A model generated the notes under the pieces. That model made no database searches. It was given only the letters and a program-made list of their open reading frames with translations, and was not told the DNA's origin. The position numbers were made by a program, and so were the translations under genes. From contig OY776510.1 in the NCBI GenBank assembly GCA_963675665.1, positions 1,792,001 to 1,856,000 on the forward strand: 64,000 bases of DNA, in the 5' to 3' direction. Of the stretch, positions 28,904-32,330 are shown in pieces (the stretch's first letter is position 1; every line of letters starts with the position of its first letter). Source of the DNA: Spirochaetia bacterium. Its GTDB lineage: Bacteria; Spirochaetota; Spirochaetia; UBA9216.

Positions 28904-30019
28904 ATGGCAAAAATCGACTATGACCTTGATCTTCAGATAGAACCCGAAATGCCTGAAAAGAAAGATTTCAGGATAGGCTGTATTGGCGCAGGTTTTATTA
29001 TGAAAGATTGTCATTTGGTTGCTTACAGAGACGCTGGATTCAATCCTTATGCGATTACTTCACTTAGCAGAGAAGAATCGGAAGCTGTTGCCGCGGAGCA
29101 CAATATACCCAGGGTTTACGACAGCTGGAAGGATCTGATAAAAGATCCGGAGATCGAAATTCTTGATATTGCGATTCCGCCGGATAAACAGCTTGAAGTT
29201 GTAGAAGCTGCAGCGAAAGAAAGCAGTCATATCAGGGGGATTCAGGCACAAAAACCGCTGGCGATGAACCTGAAAGAAGCTGTAAAGATTGTCAAGGTCT
29301 GCAAGGACGCAGGAATTACTCTCGGGGTGAATTCTAATATGCGTTATGATCAGTCAATCCGTGCGCTTAAGGCTGTTCTTGATCGGGGGTATCTTGGTGA
29401 GCCCGTTCTTGCAACTATCGACATGAGGGCGATTCCCCACTGGCAGGATTTTCTGAAGAAATACGATCGTATCGAGATTCTTAACATGGGAATCCATCAC
29501 CTGGACGTTTTCAGGTATCTGTTTGGTGATCCGGAAAAGATTACAGCTGTCACCAGAAAAGACCCGAGGACCGCTTTTGAGCATATCGACGGGATATCAC
29601 AGGTTACCTATAAATACGCCAACGATTTTATGGCTACTACGCTGGATGACGTTTGGGCGGGACCTGCGGAGGGTGCCGAGAAGGATTATTACATTAGATG
29701 GCGGGTCGAAGGTACGGACGGAATAGCACAGGGAACTATAAGCTGGTTTAATTATCCGGTTCCGACGCCCAGTACCATGGATTTCACGACAAAACAGTTT
29801 CCAGGTTATTGGTTTAAACCGCGCTGGAATAAAGTATGGTTTCCGGATGCATTTCAGGGAACAATGGCGCAGCTTCTGAGGGCGGTTGAGAGCGGAACCG
29901 AACCGGAAATAAGCGGAAGGGATAATCTGAAAACTCTCGCAGCTGTAGATGCAAGCTACAGATCCATCGCTGAAGAGAGAACTGTAGCTCTTGCAGAAGT
30001 ATTGAGAGAAATTCAGTAA
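28904..30019 (+). CDS. Gfo/Idh/MocA oxidoreductase
   Basis: IGAGFI, QKPLA, GIHHLD; AGGAGG RBS before ATG 28904. Confidence 0.9.
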   Translation: MAKIDYDLDLQIEPEMPEKKDFRIGCIGAGFIMKDCHLVAYRDAGFNPYAITSLSREESEAVAAEHNIPRVYDSWKDLIKDPEIEILDIAIPPDKQLEVVEAAAKESSHIRGIQAQKPLAMNLKEAVKIVKVCKDAGITLGVNSNMRYDQSIRALKAVLDRGYLGEPVLATIDMRAIPHWQDFLKKYDRIEILNMGIHHLDVFRYLFGDPEKITAVTRKDPRTAFEHIDGISQVTYKYANDFMATTLDDVWAGPAEGAEKDYYIRWRVEGTDGIAQGTISWFNYPVPTPSTMDFTTKQFPGYWFKPRWNKVWFPDAFQGTMAQLLRAVESGTEPEISGRDNLKTLAAVDASYRSIAEERTVALAEVLREIQ

Positions 30020-30064
30020 GAAATATTTTTTTATAGGAGGAATGATAAAAAGTCTTCATGAGCT

Positions 30065-30217
30065 GGTGAATTGATATACTGCCTTAACTTTAATTGAGGC
30101 AGTAAGGTTACTGTTCGACATTTTTACTGGTCCGCGAGACCGTTTAGGAGATTGAAGAGCCGTAACCGAAACATTCAATGGTCTGCGAGACCGGATAGGA
30201 GAATGGAACAATTCACC
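30065..30217 (+). ncRNA. Candidate bridge RNA of the IS110 element
   Basis: Outer stem GGTGAATTG/CAATTCACC encloses a hairpin (30077-30104) and two similar GGTC-YGCGA-GACC..TAGGAG modules. Confidence 0.7.
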
Positions 30218-30252
30218 GTATAGGCACTGCTTCAAACTATTGGAGATAGAAC

Positions 30253-31365
30253 ATGAAGATGAGTATTGGCGTGGATCTTCACAAAACGCAGTTTACAGTA
30301 TGCCTTTTAAGTGAAGACCGAAAAATTGATCAATTGGGAATGTATCCGACCAGCGGAAATGGTTATGGAGCATTTCTGAAAATGCTGGATGAATATTGTG
30401 AAGAGGAATATGAGTTGAGAGCAGCGGTGGAAACAACCGGGAATGCCCGTTATTTCCGCAATAAACTGTTAAAGGCTGGAGTCGAAGTGGTTGTAGTGAA
30501 TACTTTGAAATTCAAGGTAGTGAATGAATCTGTAAAAAAGACAGACAAACATGATGCACGCACCCTGGCGGAGTTTCTTGAGAAAGACATGCTGCCTGAA
30601 TCGATATTATGTTCCCAAGAGAGTGAGGATATTCGAAGGGTGCTGAAATCCAGGTCGATACTGGTAAAATCTGTTGTGTCGTTAAAGAACCAGGTGCATG
30701 GCTTATTACTTGGTTATGGAATAGAGACCAAACGCGGACAGCTGCAGAGTAAAAAAGAAAGGCAGCGAATCCTGAACGGTCTCGAGGACCACGACTTTTA
30801 CGGAAGCGCTGCCAAAACGGTAATACCGTTACTGGATATGATAGATAATCAGGCATCGCAAGTCAAGCAGCTTGAAAAGGTTTTGGCTGAGCTTGTGGAG
30901 GACGATGAAGATGTTGAGCTTCTGCAGACAATACCAGGCGTGGGTCTAATAACAGCAGCAACAGTAAGAGCCTATACAGACGATATCGGCAGATATGATA
31001 GTGCGAAGAAATATGCAGCAAACGCCGGGCTTGTGCCATGGGTGCAGAACTCAAATATGACAATACATCATGGACATATAACAAAGCGTGGGCCTGTAGA
31101 ACTGAGGACAGCCTTCGTACAGATGGTGATGGGAATGGTTCGTATGCAAAAGAAGACCGGGACGTACCGAATAATGACGAAGTATGCAGCGATGAAGAAG
31201 CAGAAAGGCTCGGGTAAGAGTGTAATAGCTGCCGCCCGCAAGATGAGCACTTTGGTATATACAATTTTAAAAACCAGAGAGCCGTTTGATCCGATGAAAA
31301 TGGCTTTTAGAAAAGAATACAGGGAAATGCAGGCAGCAGCATGGGAAGCTGTAATGGTCGGTTGA
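30253..31365 (+). CDS. IS110 family DEDD recombinase/transposase
   Basis: GVDLHK, VETTG and KTDKHDA (DEDD); IPGVG and GLVP..QNS Tnp domain. Confidence 0.95.
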   Translation: MKMSIGVDLHKTQFTVCLLSEDRKIDQLGMYPTSGNGYGAFLKMLDEYCEEEYELRAAVETTGNARYFRNKLLKAGVEVVVVNTLKFKVVNESVKKTDKHDARTLAEFLEKDMLPESILCSQESEDIRRVLKSRSILVKSVVSLKNQVHGLLLGYGIETKRGQLQSKKERQRILNGLEDHDFYGSAAKTVIPLLDMIDNQASQVKQLEKVLAELVEDDEDVELLQTIPGVGLITAATVRAYTDDIGRYDSAKKYAANAGLVPWVQNSNMTIHHGHITKRGPVELRTAFVQMVMGMVRMQKKTGTYRIMTKYAAMKKQKGSGKSVIAAARKMSTLVYTILKTREPFDPMKMAFRKEYREMQAAAWEAVMVG

Positions 31366-31427
31366 TATCCGACCAGATCATAAGCTTATATTTTTAGCTT
31401 GTGGTTGACTTTTTATAGGAGGAATTA

Positions 31428-32330
31428 ATGTTACAGGTAGGAATTTTCAACGGATACTTTCCGTATACCCTTGAAAAACAGATAAGCTGTCTGAAGGAAA
31501 ACGGTTTTCAGACTGTACAATTAGATCTTGCGTTCAAGGACATGGACTTTTCGGCGGGAACAATAACCAAAGAAAAATGCCACAAGGTGAGAGATGCATT
31601 CAGAGATGCCAATCTGCCGATTTGCGCCATATCCGGATACACAAATATCATTCATCCCGATCTTGACGAGAGAAAGAAAAGAGTCGGTTACCTTAAAGAA
31701 ATTATCAGGCATGCACGGGACCTTGGAACTCCGTATGTAATTTCCGAGACGGGAACGTACAACACCGAAAGCGATTGGGTTCATCATCCCAAAAACAAGA
31801 CTGAAGAAGGTTATGAAGAATGCGTTAAGGTCCTCGGAGAGCTTGTCCAGGAAGCCTATGATCACGGCGCAGTATTCCTGGTTGAAAACTATGTCAACAA
31901 CGTTATCGGTTCGATAGACGAAGTAAACAGACTGTTTACCGATATCAATCACACAGCCATGGGCCTTCTTATGGATCCGACGAATTACTTCGACGATTCA
32001 AACATAGATCATATGGATTTTACACTGAACAGGATATTCGATTCGGTCTCGGACAAAATCAGGATTGCTCATGCAAAGGACTGTAAAAGAGCTGAAAACA
32101 CGGTTGAAAAGCACGCTGAAATAGATGCATCGGAAGCGCACACCTTCCGCGGCGCCGGCGCTGTAGAACTTCCTGCACCGGGGACTGGCTCGCTTAATTA
32201 TGAACTGTATTTCAGAAGACTATCAGAGCGGCACACGAATATTCCGATTATCATTGAACACCTTGAAGAGGATTATATTCCGACAGCCAAGAAGTTTGTT
32301 GATGATACATTGAAGAAAGTAGGTTATTAA
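31428..32330 (+). CDS. Sugar phosphate isomerase/epimerase (TIM barrel)
   Basis: VEN, MDPTN, HAKD, PGTG, IIEH. Confidence 0.88.
   Translation: MLQVGIFNGYFPYTLEKQISCLKENGFQTVQLDLAFKDMDFSAGTITKEKCHKVRDAFRDANLPICAISGYTNIIHPDLDERKKRVGYLKEIIRHARDLGTPYVISETGTYNTESDWVHHPKNKTEEGYEECVKVLGELVQEAYDHGAVFLVENYVNNVIGSIDEVNRLFTDINHTAMGLLMDPTNYFDDSNIDHMDFTLNRIFDSVSDKIRIAHAKDCKRAENTVEKHAEIDASEAHTFRGAGAVELPAPGTGSLNYELYFRRLSERHTNIPIIIEHLEEDYIPTAKKFVDDTLKKVGY

Follow-up and report, generated by a model that had tools for sequence, protein, structure and literature searches.

We analysed a stretch of 64,000 nucleotides (nt) from the genome of a Spirochaetia bacterium (GenBank assembly GCA_963675665.1, contig OY776510.1, positions 1,792,001 to 1,856,000 of the forward strand), hereafter the window, in whose numbering all coordinates are given. 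An active insertion sequence (IS) of the IS110 family occupies 30040-31421, and its left non-coding end very probably encodes a bridge RNA, whose core lies at 30065-30217. The RNA is predicted to hold two internal loops, one for the target and one for the donor DNA. Covariation with DNA supports this assignment of the loops strongly for two of the four guides and weakly for a third; the remaining guide is assigned by identity. The predicted target is the interval between the Shine-Dalgarno sequence (SD) and the start codon of a host gene. The element and its only long open reading frame (ORF) lie as follows.

30040-31421, + strand: IS110-family insertion sequence of 1382 bp, with 15 copies in the genome and junctions shared between them
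30253-31365, + strand: transposase/recombinase gene of 370 aa, with Pfam and NCBIfam matches and its own SD (GGAG, 30242-45)

By its protein domains and its copies, the element is a genuine and recently active member of the IS110 family. The RuvC-like N-terminal domain and the C-terminal domain are both present (PF01548, DEDD_Tnp_IS110, 9.3e-18; PF02371, Transposase_20, 1.4e-17) and the protein scores 216.8 bits against NCBIfam NF033542, 'IS110 family RNA-guided transposase', for which the cut-off is 140. An earlier reading of this DNA, made from its letters alone (the sequence-only reading), had placed the RNA in the non-coding end of an IS110 element, which these matches bear out. Residues D8, E60, D98, D101 and S267, the last being the S of the G--P----S motif, are invariant among 34 relatives and were aligned to ISCro4 and IS621; the catalytic status of the D/E/D/D and Ser residues is assigned after the IS621 work. 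The solved ISCro4 and IS621 proteins are distant relatives (E 7e-16 and 6e-15). The host genome is a single contig of 5.15 Mb, in which the 15 copies, all of 1382 bp, are 99.9-100% identical; over the 1351 nt compared eight are identical and seven have one mismatch. DNA contigs from four runs of one study break at 30027-30035 and at 31421, and the depth of the element is 13-16x that of its flank in two of these runs. A circle or an empty-site joint was found in none of the contigs of the four runs, which is uninformative as contigs drop rare forms. The copies divide eight against seven by one C/T difference near the right end (window ~31373), and the contigs also branch near 30765, which suggests two sub-lineages of the element. 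The non-coding ends measure 213 nt on the left and 56 nt on the right, and the candidate RNA lies in the longer of them.

30065-30073 / 30209-30217, + strand: outer stem of 9 bp, GGTGAATTG with CAATTCACC; 88.8% of alignment cells paired, 6 of 9 pairs with double changes
30078-30087 / 30094-30103, + strand: 5' hairpin of 10 bp; 83.1% paired, 10 of 10 pairs with double changes
30106-30167, + strand: module 1, the predicted target-binding loop; helices 3-5 paired in 96-99.8%
30106-30111 / 30162-30167: proximal stem of module 1, GGTTAC with GTAACC, with inner pairs 30113-16 / 30157-60
30128-30142: distal hairpin of module 1, (T)GGTC-CGCGA-GACC(G), stem 30128-32 / 30138-42, then GT-TTAGGAG
30168-30208, + strand: module 2, the predicted donor-binding loop; helix 6 paired in 100%, 4 of 5 pairs with double changes
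30179-30193, + strand: distal hairpin of module 2, stem 30179-83 / 30189-93

All of the stems and motifs that the sequence-only reading had described are present in the DNA, and the 5' strand of module 1 reads ACATTTTTACT. Covariance modelling was used to follow this structure among relatives, which comprised 76 reference-genome loci and the best 80 of 330 metagenome matches. The reference loci are, as labelled, mostly Spirochaetota, with some metagenome-assembled genomes of Desulfobacterota type, Clostridia, Bacteroidota and Dehalococcoidia. A model built on 28 sequences with the proposed structure gave 88 matches in 87 loci (87 distinct). Standard pairs make up 92.4% of the 3515 cells in the resulting alignment, and both partners have changed in 29 of the 41 pairs. 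None of 500 shuffles reached any of five measures, and partners slid by 1-3 columns pair at 23-42%. Folding energies point the same way: for 30040-30252, the + strand reaches -64.2 kcal/mol (z -4.45; none of 200 shuffles as good), compared with a z of -2.28 for the - strand, where 4 of 200 shuffles were as good. Furthermore, a U.G pair closes both distal hairpins in 87/87 sequences and would be C.A on the opposite strand; therefore the + strand is the one that is read. No Rfam family matched positions 29900-31500 at E values up to 1. Judged by this covariation, the long non-coding end holds a conserved structured RNA, consisting of a 5' stem-loop and two modules of stem and internal loop.

The loops of this RNA were compared with the DNA at the ends and flanks of each copy. 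Of the 147 nhmmer hits, the 135 near full length were profile-aligned, giving 130 unique sites with 87 distinct cores; the 12 hits not near full length were left out, as was the left flank of locus L038, where the anchor was misplaced. The four proposed guides and their DNA partners are the following.

30172-30176, + strand: right donor guide CAUUC, covarying with the first five bases of the element
30040-30044, + strand: right donor (RD) GAATG, predicted partner of the 5' guide of the donor loop, covarying with model columns 69-73
30195-30201, + strand: left donor guide AUAGGAG, the same sequence as the last 7 bases of the element
31415-31421, + strand: left donor (LD) ATAGGAG, doubling as a replacement SD for the downstream gene; right junctions ...TATAGGAG-N5-7-ATG in 15/15 copies
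30144-30150, + strand: left target guide UUAGGAG, the same as the top strand of the left flank, which would pair with the bottom strand
30033-30039, + strand: left target half-site, the host SD ATAGGAG; [T/A]AGGAG directly before the element in 15/15 copies
30119-30124, + strand: right target guide CAUUUU, complementary to top-strand AAAATG (the start codon and 3 upstream bases)
31422-31430, + strand: right target, consisting of the spacer GAATTA and the ATG of the downstream gene; orthologous loci uninterrupted in 2 relatives

In module 2, the right donor and its guide form 5/5 Watson-Crick pairs at 117 of 126 sites, and do so with six complementary pair types (element/guide): GAATG/CAUUC at 98 sites, GAACG/CGUUC at 6, GTATG/CAUAC and GCACG/CGUGC at 5 each, GCATG/CAUGC at 2 and GAGTG/CACUC at 1. 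The remaining nine sites have 3-4 Watson-Crick pairs, or 4 or 5 of 5 once G.U is counted. For this helix 98.8% of cells are paired, 24 cells show double changes and none of 500 shuffles did as well, with slid controls at 20-41%. The sequence-only reading had identified module 2 as the donor loop and had found that it spells the donor ATAGGAG-GAATG, and both points are confirmed, the first by this covariation and the second by a left flank of ...TATAGGAG followed by the element start GAATG. The same reading had cautioned that CATTC might instead pair with GAATG at 30201-05. This pairing, which may occur in the free RNA, was rejected as the reason for the conservation of CAUUC, since it is paired in 91.5% of cells with zero double changes and 500/500 shuffles were as good; changes in the donor guide are accompanied by changes in the DNA end and not in the RNA partner GAAUG. 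The left donor guide matches the right end ...TATAGGAG at 7/7 positions, and both are almost invariant, even at ~50% protein identity.

In module 1, the left target guide tracks the host DNA to the left of the element. Guide and flank are identical at position -1 in 126/126 sites, at -2 in 126/126, at -3 in 125/126, at -4 in 122/125, at -5 in 114/118, at -6 in 113/118 and at -7 in 96/115, and at -8 in 32/112. The matching bases at -6 are of all four types (A 86, T 13, C 10, G 4), and in rare lineages the flank at -5 and -4 changes along with the guide. When guides were shuffled among their 24 types, the observed identity at -6 or at -7 was reached by none of 3000 shuffles. Position -8 was rejected as guide-specified, 955 of 3000 shuffles being as good, and as covariation extends to -6 and -7 and not to -8, the left target guide is put at 7 nt.

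The right half of the target loop was assessed at the 115 sites with a right flank, 111 of which keep CAU, followed by six highly variable bases. AGGAG and ATG are most often 6 nt apart (53 of the 115 sites), followed by spacings of 5 nt (18 sites), 7 nt (13) and 8 nt (11). The 4 sites without CAU were left out of the count of spacer complementarity, and the 15 that lacked CAU or had no ATG at 4-9 nt were left out of the tests anchored on ATG. In an ATG-anchored scan of 952 column-by-position tests, the top score (Z 8.4) belongs to the site base at -3 before ATG and the third guide base that follows CAU. Which bases occupy -1, -2 and -3 before ATG depends on the guide; for example, where the guide has C the site has G in 8/12 cases, compared with 5/88 otherwise. 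Complementarity between the three bases after CAU and the bases before ATG is 0.543, against 0.330 when shuffled (0/5000 shuffles as good; 100 sites, 23 guide types). In the ATG register it was reached by 1 of 5000 shuffles at a spacing of 6 and by none of 5000 at the other spacings. A register anchored on the core was tried and rejected for this guide, as 567 of 5000 shuffles did as well at spacings other than 6; the core-anchored scan of guide against flank gives a faint diagonal, with a maximum Z of 3.6 and a single cell above Z = 3. For the two guide bases closest to the hairpin, the ATG-anchored tables show no signal. The right target is the weakest of the four guides, though significant in one register, and these data suggest, weakly, that CAUUUU is a real but tolerant guide for AAAATG, placed a few unpaired bases from the crossover.

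The sequence-only reading had predicted a single target of the form TTAGGAG-AAATG for module 1. Its left half holds exactly, from -7 to -1, and its AAATG content stands, but the two halves are not adjacent, NNN-ATG usually lying 6 nt (range 5-8) after AGGAG. The covariation between loops and DNA across homologues that it had named as a check was found for the right donor and the left target, and weakly for the right target. The lineages that lack CAU (L166, L167, L171, L172 and L067) have targets other than an SD, namely CACAGAG or CACGGAG repeats, and look like cases of natural reprogramming. In these lineages, the first four of which are metagenome loci, the guides of the target loop are of CCACAGAG or CACGGAG type, and L172 has two tandem copies with 8 nt between them. 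We also considered the AAUG that follows AGGAG as an extra or handshake guide; it was rejected, as its variable second base follows, by eye, neither the right donor nor the flanks, and a scan for a signal from it found none among the top 30.

The insertion sites within the host genome conform to this target. All 15 copies lie between an SD, AGGAG, and an ATG, in the same orientation as the gene; the left junction reads [T/A]AGGAG then GAATGATAAAAAG in each, and the right junction ...TTGACTTTTTATAGGAG, then 5-7 variable bases (6 in 12 copies, 5 in 2 and 7 in 1), then ATG. At the orthologous loci of two relatives, with a further relative (L177) left out of the comparison, the site is uninterrupted and reads ATAGGAG-N5-ATG in one and TTAGGAG-N6-ATG in the other. 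With the copies excised in silico from the genome, 13 of 128 sites with TAGGAG and an ATG at 5-7 nt are occupied, as are 2/282 with AAGGAG and ATG, 0/271 with CAGGAG and ATG and 0/97 with GAGGAG and ATG; none of the 638 TAGGAG sites without an ATG at 5-7 nt is occupied. Variation begins at -6 in the left flank and at +1 in the right junction, which places the crossover within the shared AGGAG (30035-30039); rare relatives in which the target has A at -4 and the donor G narrow it to the last three bases of AGGAG. The downstream gene (31428-32330) encodes a xylose-isomerase-like TIM-barrel protein and a GFO/IDH/MocA oxidoreductase gene lies on the other side. An ATG also stands 2 nt after the host SD, within the first bases of the element, and opens a 10-codon ORF that runs to TGA at 30072-74 (window 30042-30074). 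It is not kept where the first five bases differ in relatives and is probably incidental.

These observations are consistent with a mechanism in which each internal loop would hold one DNA partner and pair with both of its strands, after which the DEDD/Ser recombinase would exchange strands within AGGAG. The element would land between SD and start codon in the orientation of the gene, and the TAGGAG of its right end would stand as far from the ATG as the original SD did, leaving the downstream gene with a ribosome-binding site. No terminator-like site was found inside the element, and read-through to the downstream gene therefore appears possible. As the element is always co-oriented within a transcribed leader, read-through from the host can also transcribe the RNA. 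A second source of transcript may be a promoter formed when the ends are joined, to which the following features relate.

30045-30054, + strand: left subterminal inverted repeat ATAAAAAGTC, 10/10 against the reverse complement of 31407-31416
31407-31416, + strand: right subterminal inverted repeat GACTTTTTAT, partner of 30045-30054
31405-31410, + strand: -35 box TTGACT of a putative junction promoter, near-invariant in relatives
30043-30051, + strand: putative extended -10, TG at 30043-44 and TAAAAA at 30046-51

The 10-bp repeat begins 5 nt from each end and matches at 7-10 of 10 positions in 80 of 81 lineages and at 6/10 in one. With the ends abutted there are exactly 17 nt between TTGACT and TAAAAA, the latter is preceded by TG-n, and GATAAAA is invariant in 28 relatives. 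Joined in a circle, the ends would form a promoter (TTGACT, 17 nt, TG-n-TAAAAA) with an RNA start near 30058, which would place the 5' end of the RNA ~7 nt ahead of the outer stem. Such joined-end promoters are documented for IS621 and ISEc11. For the integrated state there is no evidence of a promoter, with 4 promoter-like sites where 3.4 are expected. At the relative L044 (~1990-2060) the right end is tandemly duplicated, with two ...GACTTTTTATAGGAG ~27 nt apart, and may have been left behind by a previous insertion there. At the relatives L074, L070, L042 and L049 module 1 or the whole left end is deleted or replaced, and these are likely decayed copies.

Beyond the outer stem, a further segment of the left end appears to take part in the fold.

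30226-30235, + strand: stretch downstream of the outer stem that can pair, with covariation, with the 3' arm of the 5' hairpin (30094-30103)

The alternative helix 30094-30103 / 30226-30235 is paired in 86.3% of cells, with 165 double-change cells and none of 500 shuffles as good. Its covariation is as strong as that of the 5' hairpin itself, and RNAalifold chose it unprompted. The duplex has -17.1 kcal/mol when both strands come from the same lineage and -11.0 across lineages, and a lineage's own partner is the better one in 79/80. Lying near the ribosome-binding site of the transposase, this helix would be either a competitor of the 5' hairpin or a pseudoknot with the outer stem.

The genome also contains ~76 copies of miniature elements of ~100-145 bp (nhmmer, E up to 1e-3), mutually diverged, which share with the IS only its termini, GAATGATAAAA on the left and TTTTATAGGAG or CAGGAG on the right, and which hold three internal hairpins. 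Two of them lie in the window.

100-210, - strand: miniature element
52840-~52950, + strand: miniature element

An ATG follows at 4-9 nt in 47 of 63 hits to miniature right ends, and GGAG precedes the left end in 27 of 41. Some form tandem arrays of 2-5 copies, and five full copies of the IS abut a miniature right end, which may account for many of the left flanks that read ATAGGAG rather than TTAGGAG. The miniature elements are probably non-autonomous passengers of the IS family.

Several points weigh against the bridge-RNA interpretation or parts of it. Fitting the structural alignment to the model biases the pairing figures towards the structure, and the shuffle controls leave relatedness and host base composition in place. 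No overlap of the guides with the core is seen, both 5'-strand guides being without complementarity to AGGAG; the AAU that lies 3' of CAUUC and the bases 3' of the right target guide are likewise not complementary to it. The left donor is assigned by identity, because guide and right end never vary. Position -7 is loosely read in the host's own genome, where 9 of 13 occupied TAGGAG-type sites have A against the guide's U and so match the donor guide instead of the target guide; by the base at -7, 9/65 sites with A and 4/37 with T are used. In the right target, guide columns 23-24 show no complementarity and about half of the three variable positions pair.

An alternative has to be weighed in which the RNA is a bridge RNA and only its left target guide and its two donor guides are real. 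CAU would then be kept for folding or protein contact, and copies would be found only before an ATG because insertions at other TAGGAG sites, mostly intragenic, are selected away; the association with ATG may indeed be one of survivorship, gene-disrupting insertions elsewhere being lost. We regard this as unlikely, though it has evidence on its side: spacer complementarity is small (2.57 of 6 vs 2.13), occupied and free N6 sites of the own genome match the guide at 2.40 and 1.88 of 4 positions (p = 0.12), the natural spacing from SD to ATG also peaks at 6 nt, and the CA of CAU can pair across the loop with the UG of the conserved AAUGA. AAUGA is, however, retained where CAU has been lost (L166, L171 and L172), and therefore intramolecular pairing does not explain CAU. 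Moreover, the complementarity is specific to the register of the ATG (0/5000 shuffles, compared with 567/5000 when the same sites are anchored on the core), the pair in that register is the top of 952 tests, all lineages without CAU have also left SD-ATG targets, and the 638 TAGGAG sites without ATG are all free.

If the region acted at the level of DNA, with no guide RNA, ATAGGAG and CATTC would be transposase-binding sites or sites in hairpins of single-stranded DNA, similar to the subterminal repeats that other transposons have. The 10-bp subterminal inverted repeats agree with this, and matches to the ends are expected of DNA repeats too, but the helices tolerate G.U and not C.A, including the two U.G pairs that are invariant in 87/87 sequences, which points to a transcript of the + strand, and that strand folds far better than the other. 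Module 1 also tracks the host flank and not the element's own ends, unlike a self-recognition repeat, and related recombinases have been shown by experiment to use such RNAs. We therefore hold an action at the DNA level to be very improbable. Slightly less credible still is that the RNA serves solely as a cis-regulatory leader of the transposase mRNA and acts on translation or transcription, its resemblance to ends and flanks being incidental. Its position directly upstream of the transposase start fits a leader, and the conserved alternative helix suggests a switch near the transposase SD. Nonetheless, a leader would covary neither with DNA outside the element nor, in six pair types, with its first five bases, and a regulatory role of the alternative helix is compatible with guide function. 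The reading as a bridge RNA remains the one that we prefer. A bolder form of it, which we hold to be less likely than not, is that it represents a distinct branch of bridge RNAs in which SD (by the 7-nt guide) and start codon with 3 further bases (by the second guide) are read as separate half-sites across a flexible gap of 2-5 nt, unlike IS621, whose geometry is fixed and overlaps the core.

As in IS621 (Durrant et al. 2024, Hiraizumi et al. 2024), the RNA is encoded in the left end and is followed by the gene for a DEDD/Ser recombinase. Its predicted order of 5' stem-loop, target loop and donor loop is also that of IS621, as is the pairing of either loop with both strands of its DNA. The two also share a sigma-70-type promoter rebuilt by the joining of the ends, which is putative here, and a donor loop more conserved than the target loop. 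They differ in that the 5' side of a loop would bind the top strand here and binds the bottom strand in IS621. All four IS621 guides overlap the core dinucleotide and none visibly does so here, where the right target guide would sit 2-5 unpaired bases from the crossover and is seemingly anchored on ATG. Furthermore, the subterminal repeat is 10 bp here and 2-3 bp in IS621, and the proteins are only distantly related (phmmer 58.7 bits, mostly in the C-terminal domain). The sequence-only reading had taken the guide order to be inverted relative to IS621, and the published IS621 rule agrees.

That order is not in itself a novelty. In the IS1111-type seekRNAs the complement of the top strand comes first, the reverse of the IS110 type, and IS1111 elements have subterminal repeats and a downstream non-coding region, with a few upstream exceptions such as ISMtsp17 (Siddiquee et al. 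2024). The present element resembles IS1111-type elements (ISEc11, ISKpn4, ISPa11) in its guide order, with the guide for the top strand on the 5' side and that for the bottom strand on the 3' side, in subterminal inverted repeats within the range of 7-17 bp and in a junction promoter, again putative here. Its transposase has 24% identity over 306 residues with one ISEc11-family transposase (E 6e-20, a single pairwise comparison). It is unlike them in that its non-coding region is upstream of the transposase, not downstream, and in its clear two-loop RNA enclosed by an outer stem. By guide order, repeats and RNA position, the layout is a hybrid, IS1111-like in the first two and of the IS110 group in the third. 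The suggestion of the sequence-only reading that this could be a new programmable recombinase variant accordingly stands as to the variant and not as to a new principle, because the inverted order was already known from the IS1111-type seekRNAs.

Insertion between SD and start codon is also on record for the IS110-family elements IS900 and IS901 of the Mycobacterium avium complex (Plague 2010, citing Doran 1997 and Inglis 2003). Their hosts belong to a different phylum. The orientation of IS900 and IS901 relative to the target gene is opposite to that of the present element. Literature searches on IS900/IS110 target sites found no reading of IS900/IS901 specificity in terms of a guide RNA, and those on IS110, bridge RNA, Shine-Dalgarno and IS900 found no description of a bridge RNA that reads SD and ATG. 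A 2026 preprint counts 32,190 predicted bridge RNAs, covered by 86 models and in many cases unlike IS621, and the family of the present element may well already be in such catalogues. Of interest are the way in which SD and ATG would define the target, the restoration of an SD by the right end, the mixed layout, the possibly flexible spacing, the miniature elements and the alternative helix.

If the reading as a distinct branch is true, the element replaces the SD that it splits and is placed so that host transcription crosses both the RNA and the transposase. Only a donor junction of ~12 bp would be needed for mobility, which would explain the ~76 miniature elements, tandem arrays included, and the alternative helix would switch the transcript from the fold of a guide RNA to that of an mRNA and back. 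The old reports of insertion at ribosome-binding sites and start codons would gain a molecular reading, in which specificity would reside in two short RNA guides, and the mixed layout bears on how the IS110 and IS1111 groups diverged. Flexible spacing of the half-sites, if real, would relax a design rule of bridge recombinases and provide a compact system whose natural landing pad is almost universal among bacteria. Taken with its miniature derivatives, the SD-restoring end would portray an RNA-guided element that occupies a low-cost niche in the host genome and spawns non-autonomous passengers.

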